This document shows, piece after piece, positions 1 to 9,485 of a stretch of 64,000 bases of DNA (positions are counted from its first letter, which is position 1; every line of letters begins with the position of its first letter). The translations under genes were made by a program, and so were the position numbers. Source of the DNA: a virus; IMG/VR virus record IMGVR_UViG_3300022562_002256, positions 134,046 to 198,045 of that record. One strand, 5' to 3'. The notes below the pieces were generated by a model, which saw only the letters and a list, made by a program, of their open reading frames with translations, was not told the origin of the DNA and made no database searches.

Positions 1-200
1 GCCCGGGTGGCCCAGTCGTATCGCCACAGCGCCTCCGACAGCGCCGATGCCCAATCTCCCGACTCGAAGTCAGCCGGTGATACCTCAGGGATCGGCGCTC
101 CCCAACACGTGTGGCATGGGACCGCCTCGGTGTTCATCCCGCACCCGCCGACGTCCTCGTCGCTGTACCCGCGCCCCTTGCATTCCCCGCACGCCTTCAC
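1..200 (-). CDS. small Cys-rich protein with DnaJ-like CxxCxGxG zinc finger (partial, runs off window)
   Basis: GTG at 200 overlaps NADAR stop (GTGA); translation MKACGECKGRG...CHTCWG. Confidence 0.5.
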   Translation of the reverse strand, partial: MKACGECKGRGYSDEDVGGCGMNTEAVPCHTCWGAPIPEVSPADFESGDWASALSEALWRYDWATR

Positions 201-802
201 GACACCACCCCGTAGCGCAGGATGCGCGCAATGCCGTCGGCGATGTATGTGTCGCACGTAGGACACCAGTGCTCTTGGCCCGAACACGGCTCGAGGTAGT
301 CGCCGTCGCACCCATCGAGGCAAGCACCCGGGTCGTGAAGCAAAATCGCCGCCACGGCGAGCTCGCGCCGCCTGCGCATGAGCAAGCGCCCGAGCATGTT
401 TTCGCCCGGCGCGGCGCAGTCGGTCCGGGCTCCGCACCGGCAGTCACCCCAAAAGTTGTCATGCCAGTCGTTGCCCTCGACGAGGATCTGATCTCCTGTG
501 GCGATCAGGCGCTGCGCGAGCGGCGAGCCTTGCTCGAACTTCGAGCGCAGGCAGTCGCGCATCACACCGACCTTGACCGCTTCCCAGTCGTGGCGGAGCG
601 GGAGCTTTCGCCCCTCGCGCTTGGCTTGTCCAGCGTTGAGGCTGCCGTAGCCGACCATGAATGGCTGCCTGAGCCTTGCCACAAGCGTCTTGGCCGCCTG
701 AAAGGCGTGCTCCACGCTGGGGTACTCTGCCCCCTCGAAAAACACACCGGTCTTGACGAAGTTCGACAAGAAGGCGTTGTCGCCCCGAAACGACTCGATC
801 AT
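197..802 (-). CDS. NADAR (YbiA/DUF1768) family ADP-ribosylhydrolase-like protein with Cys-rich C-terminal extension
   Basis: FLSNF, YPSVEHAFQAAK, W..VK..VM...LRSKF, L.ATG...LVEGN.W.D.FWG, GENMLGRLLM are NADAR family motifs. Confidence 0.9.
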   Translation of the reverse strand: MIESFRGDNAFLSNFVKTGVFFEGAEYPSVEHAFQAAKTLVARLRQPFMVGYGSLNAGQAKREGRKLPLRHDWEAVKVGVMRDCLRSKFEQGSPLAQRLIATGDQILVEGNDWHDNFWGDCRCGARTDCAAPGENMLGRLLMRRRRELAVAAILLHDPGACLDGCDGDYLEPCSGQEHWCPTCDTYIADGIARILRYGVVS

Positions 803-809
803 GTTCCAC

Positions 810-1070
810 CTACGCGCAATCATCCCCATGGCCCGAGCCCGGTTCCGTCGAGTCCTCCGGCGACCCGCCGTTTGCCCCCGCATACGCCTTATTCAAGGCG
901 TATGCTCGCTCATACTCGGGGTGCCCGGGACCGTATCCCGCTGGCTGATCGACGTGGGGCTTTTCACAGCGGCACCAGACAAAGTGACCGGCGATCCCAC
1001 ACGGGTCGCCAGCAGGATACGGGTTCGGGGGGCCGACGACACGAGCCATGGGCACAACAAATTTGGTCAC
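810..1070 (-). CDS. hypothetical protein
   Basis: GTG start with GAGGTG RBS, downstream of sigma54 motif at 1094-1109. Confidence 0.45.
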   Translation of the reverse strand: MTKFVVPMARVVGPPNPYPAGDPCGIAGHFVWCRCEKPHVDQPAGYGPGHPEYERAYALNKAYAGANGGSPEDSTEPGSGHGDDCA

Positions 1071-1093
1071 GGTATCACCTCAGCCTCGTTCCA

Positions 1094-1109
1094 TGCACAA
1101 ACCGTGCCG
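1094..1109 (-). promoter_or_regulatory. sigma54-type -24/-12 promoter motif
   Basis: CGGCACGGTTTGTGCA (GG-N10-GC), back-to-back with the motif at 1128. Confidence 0.6.
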
Positions 1110-1127
1110 CGACGGGGACAACGCCCC

Positions 1128-1143
1128 CGGCACGGCCGTTGCA
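1128..1143 (+). promoter_or_regulatory. sigma54-type promoter motif
   Basis: CGGCACGGCCGTTGCA; ATG 14 nt after the -12 C. Confidence 0.7.
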
Positions 1144-1155
1144 CGCTCCCGGGGC

Positions 1156-1974
1156 ATGACCACCGACACTCTCGCCGTCCGCGCCACCGCCCGAGAGCTC
1201 GTCGCCGTGTTTCAGGAGGCTGCCGCCACCGTGCGCACGTGTTTCGGCGCGCTGCATGCGGCTGAGGCGCGCCTCGCCGCCGCCTTCTCGATGGCGGATG
1301 GGTACGCGCGCATCCGGATCCCAGCGACCCGGTGCCACCACTCGGCCGAGTTCGACCGGGCTGAAGAGTCCATCGCCGAGATGGCCCGGGACGCGTGGCG
1401 CGCCATCGTCGACCGACTCGACCTGCGCCGCCTGCTGTCCGTGGCACGCTATGAGCAACTCCAGACCGAGTTGGAGAAGGGGGCGCTCCCCGAGCTGACC
1501 GAGGACGCTGTGGTCGCCTTCGTACGGCGCTACGTCGACCAGATCGAGGAGATGCACGACGAGGCTGTGGCCGAGGTGTTCGAGTTCCTGCGCCCCCGAA
1601 GTCTCGGGATGAAGCGCCTCAAGACCAACTCCGAGCTCGAGGTGCCAGCCAAGGTCATCCTGCGGTTGGTGGCGCGAGGTCCCATGGGGTACTGGCGGCT
1701 GCGTTATTGGAAGGTGGCACAAAACCTCATCGCCCTGGAAAACGTCCTCCACGCGCTTGATGGTCGTGGCATGGTGGCATCCAGCAGTCGGAGCGCCCTA
1801 CAAACCGCGATCGAGGAGACCACAACGGGGACCGGGGAGACCGACCTGTTCTCGTTTCGGTGCTGCGAGAACGGGAACCTTCACTTGCGCTTCAAGCGAC
1901 TCGACCTGCTCGCCCGGCTCAATGCAAAGGCGGGCGGCAAGCGGCTTCGGCCGCCGACAGCGCCCTGTGCGTAA
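1156..1974 (+). CDS. DUF4942 domain protein
   Basis: C-terminal GETDLFSFRCCENGNLHLRFKRLDLLARLN resembles the DUF4942 signature; AWRAIVDRLDL and VFEFLRP blocks also fit. Confidence 0.7.
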   Translation: MTTDTLAVRATARELVAVFQEAAATVRTCFGALHAAEARLAAAFSMADGYARIRIPATRCHHSAEFDRAEESIAEMARDAWRAIVDRLDLRRLLSVARYEQLQTELEKGALPELTEDAVVAFVRRYVDQIEEMHDEAVAEVFEFLRPRSLGMKRLKTNSELEVPAKVILRLVARGPMGYWRLRYWKVAQNLIALENVLHALDGRGMVASSSRSALQTAIEETTTGTGETDLFSFRCCENGNLHLRFKRLDLLARLNAKAGGKRLRPPTAPCA

Positions 1975-2021
1975 ATCGTGCGCCTTCCGCCGCAGAATTT
2001 GCCGCGGCGGCCGTTGGCAAG

Positions 2022-2783
2022 TCATGCCTCTGCACCGATCCGCACGACCGGCACCACGCACCGGGTCCGGGTCGCCTGGTGCCAATAGGGGGCGCGTGTC
2101 CCGTCCACACGCTCACACCACGACCCCGGTGCGAGCATGGCCGGGTCTGATATACCTCCGTCGCGCACCAAAGGGAGCGACCGCTGCGGCGCCCCCTTCC
2201 ACACCAGCGATCGGTCGGCGTCGAGCCGCGTGAACTCGTACCCAAGCACCGTCCCCAGCCCACGGTTGTGGTCCCGGCCGAGCCCGCCGATGAAGTCGAG
2301 CAGCGTGGCGACCTTGCCACGGTCGCCGAGCAGCGCGAAGTCCAGGTAGGGCGTGGTCAGCGTGGCCACGGGAATATTCAGGCTTTTCCCCCAGCCCCCC
2401 GAGATGCCCAACCGCTCGATCGCGTAGTGTTCCGCTCGCGCGCGCTTGCGGCGCCACCGTTTCGACTCGACGGCGCACCGTGCTGGCCAGCCCCACGACG
2501 CGTGCGCGATCGGCCAGCCCCCGATCACCGAGTCCGCCACGGGGATCGGGATGTCGATCTTCGGCGTGCCGGCCGGAATCTCGGCGAACACGTCGTCGGG
2601 CAGCCGGCCGGTGGCGTCAAGCACCACGGCGAATTGGATGGCGCCGTCGATGGTGATTGCGTCCCGTCCATCCCACGCAACCGGCGACGCCAGCCACACG
2701 CGCACCCGGAACGGCTCGACTCGGCTACAGCCCCACCGCGCGCGAGATCGGGTCACCCACGGGGGTTCGACCCAGCCGATCAC
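2022..2783 (-). CDS. csf3: type IV CRISPR-associated Csf3 (Cas5-group RAMP)
   Basis: N-terminal EPFRVRVWLASPV strand; GKSLNIPVATLTTPYLDF..LGD...V..LL..IGGLGRDHNRGLGTV Gly-rich loop; GTGA-coupled to csf2 stop. Confidence 0.8.
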   Translation of the reverse strand: MIGWVEPPWVTRSRARWGCSRVEPFRVRVWLASPVAWDGRDAITIDGAIQFAVVLDATGRLPDDVFAEIPAGTPKIDIPIPVADSVIGGWPIAHASWGWPARCAVESKRWRRKRARAEHYAIERLGISGGWGKSLNIPVATLTTPYLDFALLGDRGKVATLLDFIGGLGRDHNRGLGTVLGYEFTRLDADRSLVWKGAPQRSLPLVRDGGISDPAMLAPGSWCERVDGTRAPYWHQATRTRCVVPVVRIGAEA

Positions 2784-4339
2784 GACGCGGCACCCCCGTC
2801 GCCCTCGCGCCCGCTGCGGCGTCGTCGACCGGCCTTTACGGGCCCCTTGGCGGCGGGTGGGGCTACCCCCGCGTCGCGCCCGGTCGGCGCGGTTTTGGCG
2901 GCACTCTGGCGCCGGCCTGGCCGGTCCTCGAGCAACCACGCGCGCAGCTCATCCCGGTGTTCCGCCACCCACGCCTGGTACACGGTCGGTGGCGGCAGCG
3001 GTGGTGCACTCCCGCCCGGGACATAAGCGACGAACCCCACCGCACCGAGCCCCCGGGCGTTCGCGGCGCCGACAAACCCGTCCTGCTGGAATTCTACGAG
3101 CAGATCGGCCATGCACGCCCCGGCCACCTCGCTCACGCCGTCCAGGCCGATGAGCTGAAATCTGTGCACCAACTGCACACCGGGGATGAGCACCTCCGTG
3201 TTGACCAGCATCTGCACGCCCTTGCAGTCCTCGATGTCCCGGTGGGCGTGGTGCGTCAGAAGTCTGAGTTGCGTGAGTGTGTCGGCCGGCTTCAGCGACG
3301 CCGTGAATTCGGGCAGCGTCATCGCGGCGCCATCGCGCGTCTTGGGCTGCAAGAGCGCATGCACCATCCACGCGTTCTCGCGGCACAGCAGGATCACGTC
3401 ATGCACCCGGAGCAGCCCTCGCATGATCTGCCCATCAACAACCCCCGCGAACAAGTCCCACGCGGGGCATACCGCGCGAGCACGCCGCCGAACCGCCACG
3501 TCCACCGCATCGCCGTCCGCCCCCGCCTCAATGGTTCCGCCCGACAGCAGCGCGTGGGCCCGGGGCGCCGGCAAGTCCTGTGCGGTCAACCCGACAAGCT
3601 GCAGCATGCGCCCCATGATGATGTCACGCCAGCATCCGCGGACCGCGTTGCCCGACACCAGCGGCACGATCGCGATCTCGCCTGTAACGGGTGACACCAC
3701 GCGCTGTCGCCGAAACATGGTCACGTTGCCGCTCTTCTCGTCGTGACCATGAGCCATGGGGGCGACCAGCGTCCACACGGCGGTGTATGCCCGGGGTGTG
3801 AGCAGGTCACCTGGCACCTCTGCGGTCCACGTCTCGGCACTGGCGGAGGCATCGGCCCACGGGGTGAACAACGCCTCCTCTCCGTCGACCGGCGGCGCCG
3901 TTGCGAAGGTGGCGAACAGCGCGGGGCTCTCCGTCACCGCAAGCCGGAGCGCATCGAAATCAATCGCTTTGCACACCGCTGTCCAGGAGACGGCTGCCGT
4001 GGTCTCGTCCGCCTCGGGATGCTCAATCTCCAGCACGCCCGCCGGCACGAGCAACCGCGGGATGAGCACGTACACCGGCCGGGCCGTGATCTCCTTGCCT
4101 TCGTCGTTCTCAAAAGTCCCGCCCGTCTCATTTATGCTGAACCGCTGGCACAGCATCCGGGTGAACTCAAGCGTCGACCGCGCGCTGGTCACCATGGGCA
4201 CAAGGGCGTCGCGTAGTTCCTCGCTGATGTTGCGGCGGCGCCGCCGAGGAATGCCCTCCCAATCGACGCGGCGCCACAGTGCCCGGAGCAGGTAGGCCAT
4301 GAGTGCGGTCGCGGCATGAATCGCAGGCGGTGTCGTCAT
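2780..4339 (-). CDS. csf2: type IV Csf2 (Cas7) with N-terminal Cas11/small-subunit-like helical domain fused in frame
   Basis: TLVAPMAHG, GNVTMFRRQRV, VPLVSGNAVRG.WRD, LLSGG, P.WDLFAG, QMLVNTEVLIPG, FVGAANARGLGAV are Csf2 motifs; N-terminal ~170 aa is helical (LWRRVDW..LEFTRMLCQRF); GAGGA RBS before ATG 4339. Confidence 0.85.
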   Translation of the reverse strand: MTTPPAIHAATALMAYLLRALWRRVDWEGIPRRRRRNISEELRDALVPMVTSARSTLEFTRMLCQRFSINETGGTFENDEGKEITARPVYVLIPRLLVPAGVLEIEHPEADETTAAVSWTAVCKAIDFDALRLAVTESPALFATFATAPPVDGEEALFTPWADASASAETWTAEVPGDLLTPRAYTAVWTLVAPMAHGHDEKSGNVTMFRRQRVVSPVTGEIAIVPLVSGNAVRGCWRDIIMGRMLQLVGLTAQDLPAPRAHALLSGGTIEAGADGDAVDVAVRRRARAVCPAWDLFAGVVDGQIMRGLLRVHDVILLCRENAWMVHALLQPKTRDGAAMTLPEFTASLKPADTLTQLRLLTHHAHRDIEDCKGVQMLVNTEVLIPGVQLVHRFQLIGLDGVSEVAGACMADLLVEFQQDGFVGAANARGLGAVGFVAYVPGGSAPPLPPPTVYQAWVAEHRDELRAWLLEDRPGRRQSAAKTAPTGRDAGVAPPAAKGPVKAGRRRRSGREGDGGAAS

Positions 4340-4397
4340 TCGGTCGTGTCCTCTTCGTTCTGTCCGTGTTTCGTGGCGAGGTCGACCCGCCGCTTCT

Positions 4398-4426
4398 ATT
4401 GTAACACATCCCGCGACGGGTGTGAG
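4398..4426 (-). promoter_or_regulatory. sigma70-like promoter for the csf2-csf3 operon
   Basis: CTCACA-N17-TACAAT with extended -10 TG, ~60 nt upstream of csf2 ATG. Confidence 0.5.
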
Positions 4427-4446
4427 GCGGCTGCACACCGGCGCGA

Positions 4447-4462
4447 TGGCACGATGCATGCA
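4447..4462 (+). promoter_or_regulatory. sigma54-type promoter motif
   Basis: TGGCACGATGCATGCA upstream of ORF 4500 and the cysH-like gene. Confidence 0.65.
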
Positions 4463-4499
4463 TGTGGATGCGCCCGGGGGGGGGGGAGGACCAACCGCG

Positions 4500-4730
4500 A
4501 TGAGACGACGTGTCATTGTCGACCCGTACACGCCCGGTAGACACGTCAATGCGATGACCATCGACGATGACACGGGCAAGCGAATTTTCGTCTTCCCCCG
4601 CCCCGGCAGCGTGGTCGTAGGTGTCTGTGAGCGCAAGAAGGCAGCGAGCGTTCTCCTACGAGTCGAGGAGGTTGACGACCTCCTCGCCGCCCTGCGTGAC
4701 GCGAGCGCCGTGGCAGGAGGCAAACCGTGA
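4500..4730 (+). CDS. hypothetical protein
   Basis: GGAGGA RBS, 76 aa, follows a G11 tract. Confidence 0.6.
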   Translation: MRRRVIVDPYTPGRHVNAMTIDDDTGKRIFVFPRPGSVVVGVCERKKAASVLLRVEEVDDLLAALRDASAVAGGKP

Positions 4731-4874
4731 CGCGCGCGAGGGTCGCCGTCCCTGACGCGCTGGGACGCCAACGATGGTAAGCGTCTTCTAGACGGGCAGT
4801 CCGTCGCGTGGACAGCAAAACCATGGGTCTGGGCGCTGACATACTCGGTGGTCCGATGACGTCGGATGCGGGGC

Positions 4875-5834
4875 ATGGCTGACCGCTCCCGGTTCGAGTC
4901 GACGTGCCCGTGCCCCGCGTGCGGCGGGTGCGCATGCCGGTGGCTGCTGCGTATGCCCGCTACCGTGTGCCAGTCTGTGCCACGATGTGCCTGCTCACGA
5001 GGGTTGGCTGCCGACGAGCCTGTCCTGTGGCCCACCGACGTCGCTGCGTGGGCCCGGTGGATGGCCGCGGCCCGCATCCATGCCCGCTCGGTGGCTCACC
5101 GCCGCGTTGTCGAGCAGGCACGGCGGGCGGTGGACCAGGCGCTTGTCGGCGCGTCGACGGCATGCGTGATGGTGAGCGCAGGAAAGGACTCGACCATCCT
5201 CGCGCACGTGGTGACGGCGTTGATGGGGCGGCACGACGTGACGTTGGTGTCCGAAAAAGATGACCTCGACTACCCGGGGGAGGAGGAGTACCTGCGGCTC
5301 CTCGCCGCGGAGTGGGGGGCAACGCTCCGCGTCGTACGGCCGCGCGTATCTCCAGCCGAATGGATTCGATCGCGAGGAGCCACACGCGCTCACCGGGCCG
5401 CGGATGACATCCACTCACGCGCGGCTGGGCTGAGCAAGGCGTGCTTTTATCGCGTGGTCGAGGCGGTCAACGCCGAGTACGATGTCGTGATGCTCGGTCT
5501 CCGTGCGCAGGAGAGCACGGTTCGACGAATCGTAAGGCACAGGCGGGGGCTGGTCTACACGCTCGCGTCGGGGCAGCGCCGGGCCAACCCGCTGTTCGAT
5601 TGGCGAGGGCTTGACCTCTACGCCTACGCCGAGAGCCACAGCATCCCCCTGCTGCCGCTCTATCGGTGCATCGCGTTCATGCACGAGCGCCGGCCGTGGG
5701 ACGTGCGTAAGGCGTGGTGGCTCCCCGGGGGCCATTCTACACGCAACGGCGGAGTCGCGTGGCTCAAGCACTACTTCCCCACACTGTATGATCAACTTTG
5801 CGAATGGATCCCAGGCGCGCCCGCCTATCGGTGA
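4875..5834 (+). CDS. cysH: CysH-like (PAPS reductase / PP-loop) protein of the type IV-B-associated kind, with Cys-rich N-terminal extension
   Basis: SAGKDS PP-loop, KDDLDYPGE, GLRAQES..RR, ANPLFDW...DLYAY....IPLLPLY; no C-terminal ECGLH of true CysH; adjacent to csf2/csf3. Confidence 0.85.
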   Translation: MADRSRFESTCPCPACGGCACRWLLRMPATVCQSVPRCACSRGLAADEPVLWPTDVAAWARWMAAARIHARSVAHRRVVEQARRAVDQALVGASTACVMVSAGKDSTILAHVVTALMGRHDVTLVSEKDDLDYPGEEEYLRLLAAEWGATLRVVRPRVSPAEWIRSRGATRAHRAADDIHSRAAGLSKACFYRVVEAVNAEYDVVMLGLRAQESTVRRIVRHRRGLVYTLASGQRRANPLFDWRGLDLYAYAESHSIPLLPLYRCIAFMHERRPWDVRKAWWLPGGHSTRNGGVAWLKHYFPTLYDQLCEWIPGAPAYR

Positions 5835-6068
5835 GTCATCCCCCCTCTTGCGCTGGCTGTGGGGTGGGTTGCACATCAGTTTATGTGGCGGGTGTGGAGC
5901 GGGGGGGTAGGCGGCGCAAGGCTTGCGCCGAACCGGCAGAATTTACCTGCGCCGATCCGGCACGATTTCCCAAACGACACGACACCCACGCGACGCACAC
6001 GTGGCGTAGCGCACGAAAGTCTTGCGCGCCTATTTGGGCACGCGCGCAAGAAAACGAGGGCCGGAGTG

Positions 6069-6084
6069 TGGCACGGGCAATGCA
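6069..6084 (+). promoter_or_regulatory. sigma54-type promoter motif
   Basis: TGGCACGGGCAATGCA; ATG at 6098 opens only a 17-aa ORF. Confidence 0.6.
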
Positions 6085-6123
6085 AGAGTGCTTAGGCATG
6101 ACCACGGCGAATCCATCTTCGCC

Positions 6124-6759
6124 TCACTCGATTGTATCGGCAGAAACTTGACTGTATTGGTAGACCACATCGGCAAGATCAAACCGCCACCTTGCCACCA
6201 TCTTGCGCCCGGGCGCCCCGTGGGTGGGCCACCTTGCTTCTGGCATCCCGGAGTCGCCTATCACCACCTCGGGCATCACCCACCGCATCCCCGCTGCGAG
6301 CACGGCGTCCTCGAGCGCCACCATGTCGTTCGCCCACGCCCGCAACACATCGTTCGGAAGGCGGTCCCACCGCGTGTCGTACCACACAAACCCGCCTCTT
6401 GTCGTACAGTGGACACCCTTCAATCGGAGGGCGTATCGCTCCGCTCGCTCTGACATCGGCGTTCTCACGCTTCTGTACCCCAGGGCATCCTGCCCGGCAT
6501 CGCGCCATGTCGGGCCAGTGGCATCGGCGTCGCCAAGGGCAAGCCACTCATCGGGTCTCCCAGACCGAACGCCGTGCCACACGCCGTGACCATCCTTATC
6601 GACCACGAGCGGGCGCCATTCCTCATTCAACGTCATGTGGGCGTTGCACCTTATCCGCTCGACGCGAAGCCACTCACACTCGGGCCGGTAGAGGCGCACG
6701 TCGGAACGCCCACACACGCTGCACGCGTACCTGTGGTAGTATCGGTTACCGCTGGTCAT
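6124..6759 (-). CDS. hypothetical protein with N-terminal CxxC
   Basis: ATGA-coupled to upstream ORF; YACSVCGR. Confidence 0.55.
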   Translation of the reverse strand: MTSGNRYYHRYACSVCGRSDVRLYRPECEWLRVERIRCNAHMTLNEEWRPLVVDKDGHGVWHGVRSGRPDEWLALGDADATGPTWRDAGQDALGYRSVRTPMSERAERYALRLKGVHCTTRGGFVWYDTRWDRLPNDVLRAWANDMVALEDAVLAAGMRWVMPEVVIGDSGMPEARWPTHGAPGRKMVARWRFDLADVVYQYSQVSADTIE

Positions 6760-6986
6760 GTCGGCCTCGCCCACCACTCCGTCTTGCACGTTGTGCAGAC
6801 CAACCACTCCACGACATTGGCACACCGGCGCCACGCGTGGCACACACTGCACCACTTTTCCACGACCGTCGTCTCCGTCGCATACAAAGGGGTGCTGATA
6901 ACCACCCCTTGCATGGTCACAAGATCGACGGGCGCTCCAGTCAAGCGCTCGACGCGTCGATTCCGTTCTTCCCCGTGGGTGTGCAT
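6756..6986 (-). CDS. small zinc-ribbon protein
   Basis: CSVC...CTTC; ATG 14 nt after sigma54 -12 element. Confidence 0.6.
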   Translation of the reverse strand: MHTHGEERNRRVERLTGAPVDLVTMQGVVISTPLYATETTVVEKWCSVCHAWRRCANVVEWLVCTTCKTEWWARPT

Positions 6987-6998
6987 GCCAGCCATCAA

Positions 6999-7014
6999 TG
7001 CACATACCGTGCCA
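6999..7014 (-). promoter_or_regulatory. sigma54-type promoter motif
   Basis: TGGCACGGTATGTGCA. Confidence 0.7.
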
Positions 7015-7192
7015 ACGGTGAGCGGCGGCGTTCTCTTCCGCCGCGGGCTGTGTAGAACCGCCTTCCACCGCCATAGCCCATCTGTTATGCAATTTGTGCG
7101 CGCCGCGGCGGTAATTTTTACGCGCCGACTACTCGGCCTTCTGGGTGCTACGATCTGCTACCCCTCCGCCGCCCTACGCATCACGACGTAAG

Positions 7193-7672
7193 TCACGTCG
7201 TGCATAAGTTGCGGGGGTCGCCGGTGTCTCGCATGCCACGCCGCAGTTTGGTCAGCTCGGCGTGGACCGAGTAGGGCGTCACCTGCCGGTCCACCCAGTC
7301 TCGCAACGCCGCCTCGTATGCCCACCGCTTGCCCCCCCGCGCCTTCAGCAGCGGCACTGGATCGTGATCCCGGAGCGCCAACCGTCCGACCTCTGACTCG
7401 CTCATGCCGAGCACATGGGCAATGTCACGGCGCCCATGCACACGCGCCAGGGCGGTCCCGTCCGCGAGCACGCCACCGTTGAACGTGCGGGCCTTCCACT
7501 CGTCGAGCGCGCCCGGCTTTGCCCACGGCTGTCCCCGAACCGCCATCACCGGCAGCGGGTCGACGCGCCTACGCGCGTAAGCCAACACCGTGTCGGGGCA
7601 CGACACGACGGCCAACCGGCGCGCTATGGCCTTCCAGCCGATGAGAGGGGGCGCCGATGGGGCTGTCAGCAC
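7193..7672 (-). CDS. tandem excisionase/AlpA-like helix-turn-helix protein
   Basis: two related units LIGWKAIARRL..S.DTV..YA.R..DPLPV....W and VHGRRDIAHVLGMS.SEV.RLA.R..DPVPL....W. Confidence 0.6.
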   Translation of the reverse strand: MLTAPSAPPLIGWKAIARRLAVVSCPDTVLAYARRRVDPLPVMAVRGQPWAKPGALDEWKARTFNGGVLADGTALARVHGRRDIAHVLGMSESEVGRLALRDHDPVPLLKARGGKRWAYEAALRDWVDRQVTPYSVHAELTKLRRGMRDTGDPRNLCTT

Positions 7673-8217
7673 GGCGGGCCACACCAGCCCCACCACAGGC
7701 TGATGAACATGTCGGCCGCCGCCGACAACGCCGCGTCGTGATCCTCGTAGATGCCGGTCACACGGTCGGGTTCGTCTTGCATGCGCACGATGCCGACGTG
7801 GCCGCCGCGGCAGAGCCCCGTCGTCGGGTATGGCCCATTGGGGAGCGCCTCCGTTATGGCCCACGCAGCCCGCTGCATAGGCGACAGATCCGCCCATGCC
7901 ACGCAGTGCGGATTCCCACCACACGCGGCGGCGTACGTCTGTTCGCCGGCTGACGGTGCCGAGTTGTCCACCGGCGCTGGAGGAGACTCACTCGCGTCCC
8001 AGCGCTCGACTATCGCGCCGGTGCCGGTGACATCGCGCATGCCCACCGCGCAGTCCAGAAATTCCCCCCCAGCGATTTCGCGCGCGCGCACGCCATGGGC
8101 GGTGTGGCCCCCACAGAACAGCAATACCGTGCTTTCCGCCAGCCCGTCAACCACGCGGCGCCGCCAATAGAGCCGCCCCGGCGTGGGCCGCCACGCCGCA
8201 TCAATCACATCGCCCAT
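7666..8217 (-). CDS. hypothetical protein
   Basis: GGAGGAG RBS, downstream of sigma54 motif at 8248. Confidence 0.6.
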   Translation of the reverse strand: MGDVIDAAWRPTPGRLYWRRRVVDGLAESTVLLFCGGHTAHGVRAREIAGGEFLDCAVGMRDVTGTGAIVERWDASESPPAPVDNSAPSAGEQTYAAACGGNPHCVAWADLSPMQRAAWAITEALPNGPYPTTGLCRGGHVGIVRMQDEPDRVTGIYEDHDAALSAAADMFISLWWGWCGPPC

Positions 8218-8247
8218 GTGCTTGCTCCTCCGCGAGCGCCCCCCACA

Positions 8248-8263
8248 TGCACGCCGTGTGCCA
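8248..8263 (-). promoter_or_regulatory. sigma54-type promoter motif
   Basis: TGGCACACGGCGTGCA. Confidence 0.7.
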
Positions 8264-8267
8264 GCAC

Positions 8268-9485
8268 TCAGGGAGCGTCCCCGCGGAAATAGGACGCCTC
8301 GATGCGGGCGGGCCGCTCGCTTGGTGACGACGGGCGGCGGCCCGCCCTGTCGTCGCGCGGGGGGATGAGCCCGTGGAGTTGCGACTCGTCGGCAACCAAA
8401 TCCCGCCGCCCCTCCATGAGGGCACGCATCCCAGCCGCGGGCACCCTCCGCAAGCGCGACTCCAGGCGACGTCGCGCCGCCGCAAGGATGCGCCGCACAT
8501 CCGCGTCCGAAAGCCACGCCGACGCCGCGTTAATGGCCTCAGCCGCATCGAGCAACGCCTCACGCCGGGCCGCCACCACACCGACACGTCGCACGCGCAC
8601 GTCGGTCGGGCGCACATCGACCCCGCCTACCCACGCCCGATACATCAACACTCGCTCGGCCATAGGGACATCAGCGCCAGCGAGCGCTGACACTTCCGCC
8701 GGCGACAGGTCCGCCGCCCCTACCCCCCGCTCAGCGTCTACCCCCCGTTCGACCGTAGCAAGGCCCTTGACACCAAACTGCGCCGCCCTGGTCTCGCGAC
8801 ATTCGATCTCCCCCCATCGCGCCCGCGTCCGGCCCCGTGTCTCCGCCGCCCGGTCGAATGAAACCGCTCCCGCACCAAGCGGGCAGCGGGCCGCCGACGC
8901 CGCTGCCAACACGTGCTGCGCCGACCGGAACGGCGCGCGCGGGGTAGTCGTCTGGCGTTGCCGGATCCGTCGATCGCACGGGTCACCACTCAGAAGCGCC
9001 GCAACCGCAGGGTCATGCGCCCAGGGGGCCAGTGCCGCCACGATCGCCTCCCAGCCGCCACTGAGCAACGGGCGGAGGTCGTTGTTCTCGAGCGCGCGGA
9101 ACGAAAGCGACACCATGCGCCGCACCTCGTCAGGGGATGTCCGCGGTGGCCGGATGAACCGCCACCGCTCGTACGCCTCCAACAGGAGGGGGCAGTCGCG
9201 CTTTTCGTCGCGGAGGTTGTGCTCCGTCGCCCCGTAGGGCATGCACACGCGCCGCGTAGATGGCTTTCCGTATGCCGGTCGGCCCTGTGGGTAGTCGGCG
9301 ACGTGGCGGCCCCGTGTGGGGGCGCTGTGTGCCACGGCGAGGCGTTCCGCCAGCGGGCGCTCGACCACATCACCCCACGGCGAGGTCGGATCCGCCGGGT
9401 CCAGACGCCGGACGCTCAATGTCGCTCGAGAACGGGGTGGCGGAGTATGTTCGCTCGGGATCTGTTGCACCTGGGGGGCTGCCAT
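8268..9485 (-). CDS. hypothetical protein (405 aa)
   Basis: long ORF with GGAG RBS in a co-oriented gene run; no recognised family. Confidence 0.6.
   Translation of the reverse strand: MAAPQVQQIPSEHTPPPRSRATLSVRRLDPADPTSPWGDVVERPLAERLAVAHSAPTRGRHVADYPQGRPAYGKPSTRRVCMPYGATEHNLRDEKRDCPLLLEAYERWRFIRPPRTSPDEVRRMVSLSFRALENNDLRPLLSGGWEAIVAALAPWAHDPAVAALLSGDPCDRRIRQRQTTTPRAPFRSAQHVLAAASAARCPLGAGAVSFDRAAETRGRTRARWGEIECRETRAAQFGVKGLATVERGVDAERGVGAADLSPAEVSALAGADVPMAERVLMYRAWVGGVDVRPTDVRVRRVGVVAARREALLDAAEAINAASAWLSDADVRRILAAARRRLESRLRRVPAAGMRALMEGRRDLVADESQLHGLIPPRDDRAGRRPSSPSERPARIEASYFRGDAP

Follow-up and report, generated by a model that had tools for sequence, protein, structure and literature searches.

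A predicted Cas11-Csf2 fusion conserved among type IV-B CRISPR-Cas loci and found without csf1 in one phage

Analysis of a 64,000-nucleotide window of the IMG/VR virus record IMGVR_UViG_3300022562_002256, a complete 198-kb genome of an uncultured phage with direct terminal repeats whose host group is probably Myxococcota, uncovered a type IV-B CRISPR-Cas module whose small subunit, Cas11, is predicted to form the N-terminal part of one protein with the backbone subunit Csf2 (Table 1). We consider it very probable that this is a true and selected Cas11-Csf2 fusion, in an operon with csf3 and next to a divergent cysH-like gene, in a complete phage that has neither a CRISPR array nor csf1. Comparison of the loci at the sequence level indicates that related elements often carry the fusion, and that the loss of csf1 is a peculiarity of this one phage.

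Table 1. Features of the phage type IV-B locus (positions in the window)
Feature	Position	Strand	Details and basis
csf3 (Cas5)	2022..2783	-	253 aa; PADLOC Csf3_0_IV, E 3.7e-24; TIGR03116, E 9.8e-6
cas11::csf2 fusion gene	2780..4339	-	519 aa + stop; ORF and translation
C-terminal tail, basic and disordered	2783..2926	-	residues 472-519; pLDDT 38-60
Csf2 (type IV Cas7) domain	2927..3784	-	residues 186-471; type IV Cas7 profiles
Predicted Cas11 (type IV-B small subunit) domain	3809..4339	-	residues 1 to ~160 and start of linker
Putative sigma-70-like promoter, extended -10	4398..4426	-	CTCACA-17-TG-TACAAT; consensus match only
76-aa ORF	4500..4730	+	divergent from csf2, upstream of cysH-like gene; sequence and RBS
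cysH-like PP-loop (PAPS-reductase family) gene	4866..5834	+	PF01507, E 2.6e-9; phrog_2302, E 1.1e-17

The Csf2 domain was readily recovered by the PADLOC typeIV_Cas7 profile (E 1.9e-42) and by comparison with Csf2 of 7JHY (E 3.7e-20), the type IV-B effector of Mycobacterium sp. JS623 whose architecture was described by Zhou et al. 2021 (PMC7937560), and a Foldseek search with its Cas7 fold returned type IV-A and IV-B Csf2 and Csm3 as the best matches; since TIGR03115 matches it only weakly (17 bits, with the cut-off at 130), it is a divergent member. Because the Cas7 profiles begin at residue 186, ~185 residues precede the Cas7 fold without a stop; an earlier note made from the sequence alone had remarked on such an uninterrupted stretch, put at ~170 aa, in this 519-aa csf2 ORF. 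That note had also described the N-terminal stretch as helical, which holds for its helices (4 + 4) but not for a four-strand β insert at residues 70-118 that is shorter in most relatives, and it had rightly pointed to a basic, disordered C-terminal tail, a Lys/Arg/Gly-rich version of which is found across the fusion family. A linker of ~25 residues separates the two domains, and the AF2 model of the whole protein has a pLDDT of 88.9 and a pTM of 0.83. The reading frame stays open as far as 5077; the coding signature (GC low at the second and high at the third codon position) sets in only from ~4330, and the start methionine (MTT...) is common to all homologues.

A start-codon scan places the GTG start of csf3 over the stop of csf2 (GTGA), and csf3 adjoins csf2 in all relatives; this arrangement of the sequence indicates that csf3 is translationally coupled to the fusion gene, the first of a two-gene operon. 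The cysH-like gene lies divergently, 527 bp from csf2, with its PP-loop motif (SAGKDS) intact and its true start possibly at the ATG at 4953, and the copies in the loci of relatives are 45-55% identical to it. Searches of Pfam, PHROG and PADLOC with the 76-aa ORF gave no match, and the relatives have no copy of it. Neither a spaced-repeat array nor a long-period tandem repeat occurs in the whole genome, Rfam has no match in 1-9000, and none of the ORFs on either side of the locus looked like Cas6, a helicase or an adaptation gene. As regards type IV-B membership, the locus has Csf2, Csf3, Cas11 (as an N-terminal domain, with no separate gene), a cysH-like gene and no array; what it lacks is Csf1, the Cas8-like large subunit.

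Searches for Csf1 over the phage genome were negative throughout: TIGR03114 found no match in the whole 198,045-bp record, the canonical Csf1 HMM nothing at E <= 10, and a clade-specific Csf1 HMM, which recovers every relative at E <= 1e-32, gave at best E 3.2 in six frames with filters off, so that the check for a nearby csf1 homologue yielded none. The earlier remark that no csf1-sized ORF lies beside the operon stands in the sense that no recognizable csf1 exists genome-wide, but ORFs of that size are many in this 67% GC DNA, none of them Csf1-like. The relatives in clade A (L001-L012, L080-L081, L086-L125, L128 and L130, from viral and metagenome contigs and Myxococcota MAGs) also carry this Cas11::Csf2 fusion, at 30-59% identity, followed directly by csf3, and their loci include a cysH-like gene. 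They differ from the phage in that csf1 directly precedes the fusion in each of the 53 whose upstream sequence is available (PADLOC Csf1_0_IV, E 1e-17 to 1e-10), and in that cysH lies on the same strand, downstream. The phage is thus the only csf1-less one among 54 clade-A loci. A second fused clade, B (e.g., L036, L018, L020 and L055), likewise has Cas11 joined to the N-terminus of Csf2, with a shorter linker, no β insert and an easily recognized Cas11 sequence, and it too retains csf1, in the order fusion, csf1, cysH-like, csf3. In a tree of the Cas7 domain, as defined by HMM, clades A and B are sisters, set apart from the split forms by a branch with support 0.999, which suggests that a single fusion event took place. 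Of the 163 loci retrieved, ~100 belong to the fused branch, a share that is no estimate of frequency since the loci were picked with fused clade-A motifs. As the 53 relatives keep csf1, its loss is particular to the phage and no property of the fusion, and as clade B keeps it as well, the fusion normally operates alongside Csf1, whose absence is a derived state. The survey of homologues for the fusion together with csf1 absence therefore bore out only its first half, the fusion being common to 76 clusters, and the proposal that the fusion goes with absence of the large subunit, as a self-contained filament without a PAM-reading subunit, is not supported in that form.

By analogy with 7JHY, the Csf2 domains would polymerize along RNA into a helical backbone, with the tethered Cas11 domains forming a minor filament on the Csf2-Csf2 interfaces; their ratio to Cas7 would be a fixed 1:1, as follows logically from the fusion. 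Csf3 would cap one end of the filament, and the CysH-like enzyme would act with or on the particle. Filament assembly, RNA as the ligand and cooperation with CysH are what we infer from this analogy; RNA binding or sequestration rather than DNA targeting, the role that the earlier note favored, has already been proposed for type IV-B generally (PMC7038947, PMC8175902). In the phage, Csf1 was probably lost during a rearrangement that also put cysH upstream in divergent orientation, leaving a natural Csf1-free version of the module. We tentatively propose, as a possibility that falls short of an expectation, that this version is a functional minimal type IV-B particle of only Cas11::Csf2 and Csf3 with CysH as partner, in which an extra tethered Cas11 at the filament end replaces the large subunit, and which acts free of Csf1, for instance by covering or sequestering RNAs of the host or of rivals in the course of infection.

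Alternatively, the module could be a decaying remnant, in which the complex died with the loss of csf1 and the remaining genes are merely not yet broken. Csf1 looks generally required, given that only one of the 54 clade-A loci is without it, and the atypical arrangement with a divergent cysH and the strain-level breakpoints at 4731-4756 point the same way. Yet all three genes are intact, with every family-invariant residue, the PP-loop motif and the start-stop coupling of csf2 and csf3 retained, and the branch of the phage is of ordinary length for its clade (in a Cas7 tree with most split forms left out). Further, a contig from another study (X3) carries a 96.5%-identical variant of the fusion over residues 105-437, with 35 substitutions and no indel, in which 23 codons are changed synonymously and eight non-synonymously. 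With its ORFs intact and the ~3.5% divergence mostly synonymous, the csf1-less module appears to be still under purifying selection. Type IV-A2, which is Csf1-less as well, is considered CRISPR-Cas-functional by Pinilla-Redondo et al. (PMC7038947). We accordingly regard decay as rather unlikely.

Less probable again is that a large subunit is still used and goes unrecognized, either as an analogue encoded nearby or as Csf1 provided by the host or by another element resident in it. Csf1 proteins bear an N-terminal zinc-finger-like Cys motif, and two of the candidates would fit such a description: the cysH ORF starts with eight Cys in ~40 aa, and a zinc-ribbon ORF at 6127-6759 (- strand) has the N-terminus CxxCG...C...C. 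Both Csf1 HMMs, however, give the cysH N-terminus negative scores, and the CysH proteins of relatives have no such extension, starting ~5-10 aa ahead of the conserved EPxL motif, which rules out the Cys-rich start as a grafted Csf1 zinc finger. The zinc-ribbon ORF has only sub-threshold matches in the ESM Atlas, the third candidate (the 76-aa ORF) contains no Cys and lacks homologues in the relatives, and no phage ORF does better than E 3 with the clade-specific Csf1 HMM.

The assignment of the N-terminal domain to type IV-B Cas11, as the earlier note had read it, is based mainly on one structural match of the predicted model, whose helical folds commonly draw middling Z values, the sequence similarity being weak. 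When this model was compared by VIA-align with 48,161 PDB chains, Cas11 of 7JHY (chain h, 143 aa, in an entry that contains only Csf2, Cas11 and RNA) came first at Z 8.7 (rmsd 3.5, 110 residues aligned) against Z 4.4 for the runner-up, and further Cas11 and Csm2 chains were found lower down. A Foldseek search of the PDB with the isolated domain yielded no match under E 0.1. At the sequence level the isolated domain has just two matches among the 5,027 PADLOC models, both typeIV_Cas11 (E 0.0036 and 0.0064), and hhalign pairs it with stand-alone IV-B Cas11 at E 8.8e-4 and with a merged Cas11 profile at E 1.5e-4 over 97 collinear columns, at probabilities of only 23-52%. A Pfam search returned no match, and a profile of the domain found none among PDB sequences, 7JHY Cas11 not being recovered; the stand-alone Cas11 profile did not recover it there either. 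Nine residues of the domain are invariant in an alignment of 14 clade-A sequences. An unrelated helical domain, with a generic helical-bundle likeness to Cas11, might be suspected from the empty Foldseek search and the low hhalign probabilities, and helical models often score Z >=8 by chance; but the 7JHY chain stands 4.3 Z units above 48,160 others, and the system in which it serves as small subunit is precisely the one to which the Cas7 half of this protein belongs; its fold has been described as set apart from those of the other small subunits (PMC7937560). The only PADLOC matches being typeIV_Cas11 likewise speaks against such a domain, as do the clade-B extension, which matches stand-alone Cas11 directly (E down to 9e-11), and the fact that no fused locus has a separate cas11 gene. 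We hold this alternative to be very improbable, and identify the domain, on the strength of the model, as type IV-B Cas11.

An assembly artefact behind the fusion or the csf1-less junction, conceivable in that the source record is a metagenome assembly, is scarcely credible, considering that the fused frame recurs in over 50 independent contigs drawn from many samples, and that contigs of other studies run from the csf2 start through the intergenic region and the small ORF and cross the domain junction without indels, an X3 contig doing so also without a stop and an X3 contig spanning 4226-4794 with the csf1-less junction. Homologues form 76 protein clusters of 430-530 aa that cover >85% of its length, and 54 clade-A loci, the phage included, carry it. 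These sequence comparisons indicate that the Cas11-Csf2 fusion is genuine, conserved and selected. We found no published description of such a fusion in the literature covered, to which Moya-Beltran et al. 2021 (PMC8658065) did not belong.

Among known systems, type IV-B of JS623 is like the phage module in its Csf2 backbone, Cas11 fold, csf3 and cysH-like gene, as well as in having no CRISPR array, no Cas6 (in the phage, among the ORFs flanking the locus) and in being carried on a mobile element. It differs in that its cas11 and csf2 are separate genes, csf1 is encoded, cysH lies downstream, Cas11 lacks the β insert, and the particle contains five Cas11 to six Csf2. An earlier instance of Cas7 and Cas11 domains sharing a polypeptide is type III-E Cas7-11 (gRAMP; PMC11127173); however, it is of unrelated origin, with several Cas7 domains in one protein that binds crRNA as a monomer, and involves neither polymerization nor CysH. 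Type IV-A2, with no Csf1, and IV-E, with a Csf3-Csf1 fusion (Pinilla-Redondo et al. 2020; PMC7038947), show like the phage that a type IV module can do without Csf1 and that neighboring subunits can fuse, but they have DinG, Cas6 and arrays, no Cas11, and other subunits fused or lost.

The fused loci constitute a large natural branch in which Cas11 would be covalently tied to Csf2 and the stoichiometry thereby fixed; such a branch reveals which termini have to lie near each other once the particle is assembled and offers simpler constructs for structural work. The sole type IV-B structure has, to our knowledge, no density for Csf1 or Csf3, and we know of no established function for this class 1 CRISPR-Cas subtype. 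The single Csf1-free member is in effect a natural deletion experiment, and its contrast with the close Csf1-bearing relative L001 could reveal what Csf1 contributes. With loci drawn from IMG/VR viral records and metagenome contigs, the present set adds to the view that type IV-B serves mobile elements rather than their hosts.

No intrinsic-terminator-like site was found in 1900-6200. The putative promoter, 59 nt upstream of cas11::csf2, is the sole sigma-70-like site in that same region, for which shuffled sequence gives a mean of 0.3 such sites.

Residues 186-471 of the 519-aa protein match type IV Cas7 (PADLOC, E 1.9e-42), the closest sequence with a solved structure being Csf2 of 7JHY, the type IV-B complex of Mycobacterium sp. 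JS623 (E 3.7e-20); a confident AF2 model of the whole protein, built from a 46-sequence alignment (pLDDT 88.9, pTM 0.83), recovered Csf2 of types IV-A and IV-B, and Csm3, in Foldseek. For the N-terminal extension, earlier proposed to be Cas11-like, we built a separate model of residues 1-177 (14 clade members; pLDDT 89.1) and searched 48,161 PDB representatives with VIA-align, independently of Foldseek. The first match was 7jhy_h (Z 8.7, rmsd 3.5 Å, 110 residues aligned, model range 3-153), with the runner-up at Z 4.4 and Cas11 and Csm2 of types I-B, I-A and III lower down the same list. Apart from RNA, 7JHY consists of six 300-aa Csf2 chains and five Cas11 chains, so its 143-residue chain h is Cas11; the IV-B Cas11 fold is described as differing from that of other small subunits (PMC7937560). 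Among 5,027 PADLOC models, only the two typeIV_Cas11 models matched the isolated domain (E 0.0036 and 0.0064), and hhalign aligned it with stand-alone IV-B Cas11 from canonical csf1-cas11-csf2-csf3 loci (E 8.8e-4) and with a merged Cas11 profile (E 1.5e-4; 97 collinear columns across the whole domain); Foldseek, Pfam and PDB sequence searches with the domain returned no match. The N-terminal domain is thus very probably Cas11, distinguished from known IV-B versions by an added β insert (residues 70-118) that is only a hairpin in most relatives.

The fusion itself, reported earlier as lacking an intervening stop, is seen well beyond this phage: the full-length architecture is found in 76 protein clusters, and the clade-specific N-domain lies in frame with Csf2 in 54 loci. 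Nine residues (Y16, L17, R19, R34, E41, R66, W119, F145, A146) are invariant in the 14 aligned N-domains of clade A, the loci sharing this N-domain. Near-identical DNA is present in public-run contigs of other studies, and one contig from run X3 spans residues 105-437 with 35 substitutions (codon changes: 23 synonymous, 8 non-synonymous), no indel and no stop. For practical purposes, an assembly artefact or hidden stop as the source of the fusion is excluded.

Many further Csf2 genes from viral and metagenome contigs encode proteins of 404-505 aa whose N-terminal extension directly matches stand-alone Cas11 (E down to 9e-11), defining a second fused clade, B. Its gene order (e.g., L036:7596-10906) is cas11::csf2, csf1, cysH-like, csf3, permuted relative to the canonical csf1, cas11, csf2, csf3, cysH. 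An unrooted FastTree of 140 HMM-defined Cas7 domains separated A and B together from all split forms by a branch of 0.999 support; the few "split" labels within A and B are contig-end truncations, apart from L043, which is a frameshift or a true split. A single fusion event would be the simplest reading of this tree. In the type IV papers searched, a set without Moya-Beltran et al. 2021, no description of Cas11 fused to Csf2 was found.

The earlier note had also reported that no csf1 lies by the operon, and this stands: neither TIGR03114 (Csf1) nor a Csf1 HMM from canonical loci matched the phage genome. The canonical HMM does match the ORF directly 5' of the fusion in relatives, and an HMM of those ORFs matches every relative and, reciprocally, canonical Csf1 (E 5e-7 to 5e-4); its best hit in the phage had E 3.2 (six frames, filters off). 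PADLOC independently called three of the relatives' ORFs Csf1_0_IV (E 1e-17 to 1e-10). The csf1 gene is immediately 5' of the fusion on the same strand in 53/53 clade-A loci with upstream sequence, the window phage being the sole exception, and an independent X3 contig bridges the csf1-less junction (4226-4794). The absence of Csf1 is thus a genuine, derived loss peculiar to this phage, whose sequence nests within clade A. The fusion is not an adaptation to lacking a large subunit, so that the earlier interpretation was half right: the fusion is genuine, and its link to Csf1 loss falls away. What emerges is a fused type IV-B branch that is widespread and apparently undescribed, with one natural Csf1-free member.

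The phage locus combines its parts list with csf2-csf3 coupling, an intact PP-loop and purifying selection, and has neither csf1 nor, anywhere in the phage genome, a CRISPR-like array. By analogy with 7JHY (PMC7937560), the Csf2 domains would polymerize on RNA, each Cas11 domain sitting on one Csf2-Csf2 interface; with Cas11 fused, the Cas11:Csf2 ratio would be n:n, not (n-1):n, leaving one terminal Cas11 domain spare at the end usually given to the large subunit's Cas11-like C-terminal bundle. Csf1 loss might be eased by this spare domain. The linker (~25 residues, conserved Pro176) is predicted by its length to span tens of angstroms. Candidate roles for the particle are RNA sequestration, guiding CysH to nucleic acid, or another; the same question stands for type IV-B as a whole (PMC8175902, PMC7038947).

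The virus record (198,045 bp, G+C ~67%), of which the window is bases 134,046-198,045, has direct terminal repeats and is rated complete. Some relatives lie on MAG contigs of Myxococcota and Sorangium, which would fit a possible myxobacterial host. csf2 ends and csf3 begins within a shared GTGA, csf3 using GTG as its start codon. The frame of the fusion ORF is free of stops as far as 5077; its codon-position GC signature begins only at ~4330, and its MTT start is common to homologues. As relatives' CysH start a few residues ahead of a conserved EPxL, the true cysH-like start may be ATG 4953. From the first ATG, this ORF has 8 Cys within its first ~40 aa, a stretch absent from relatives' CysH and without similarity to Csf1, which may be untranslated given the alternative start. 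Contig ends are loose in three runs (X1, the source sample, X2 and X3) at a mosaic breakpoint between the 76-aa ORF and cysH, adjoining the spot where the locus departs from relatives; related strains apparently join different DNA there. Beyond csf3 lie the DUF4942 and then the NADAR gene, neither kept beside relatives' loci. For the 211-aa ORF, ESM Atlas matches stayed below threshold, and Pfam, NCBIfam, PADLOC and PHROGs gave none.

Features of the phage locus (window coordinates) and tailed Csf1 proteins of related loci
Feature	Position	Strand	Remarks
NADAR-domain gene	197-883	-	PF08719, E 1.2e-22; anti-phage NADAR model DS32_2 matched below cut-off
DUF4942 gene	1048-1974	+	directly 3' of csf3, convergent
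csf3	2022-2783	-	directly 3' of csf2
cas11::csf2 ORF, 519 aa	2780-4339	-	type IV Cas7 profiles
Csf2 tail	2783-2926		last residues GGAAS
Sigma-70-like promoter	4426-4398	-	only such site in 1900-6200
G homopolymer, ~11 G	4470-4482	+	just 5' of 76-aa ORF RBS, in divergent promoter region
X3 variant	4476		3 nt shorter at this point of the G homopolymer
76-aa ORF	4500-4730	+	divergent from csf2; without relatives
Mosaic breakpoint	4731-4756		
cysH-like PP-loop gene	4866-5834	+	PF01507, E 2.6e-9; SAGKDS motif
Cys-rich cysH start	4875-5030		
211-aa ORF	6127-6759	-	convergent with cysH; N-terminal CxxCG...C...C zinc-ribbon-like motif
Tailed Csf1	L006:7064-8092; L012:6929-7918; L081:18-824; L011:7034-8059; L009:3793-4866		

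Among the Csf2 fusions (P0003-P0075), about half carry a short terminal Leu/Phe motif beyond the basic Lys/Arg/Gly tail (e.g., ...EAGAL, ...EGVF, ...EETF), which the window Csf2 lacks. Long disordered tails also occur in 5 of 13 clade-A Csf1 proteins, four ending in QLSLF, QLTLF or QLGLAF and that of L009 in QLPLWR. These ends resemble the bacterial sliding-clamp-binding motif, QL[SD]LF; if they are clamp motifs, IV-B complexes with tailed Csf1 could be recruited to the replisome.
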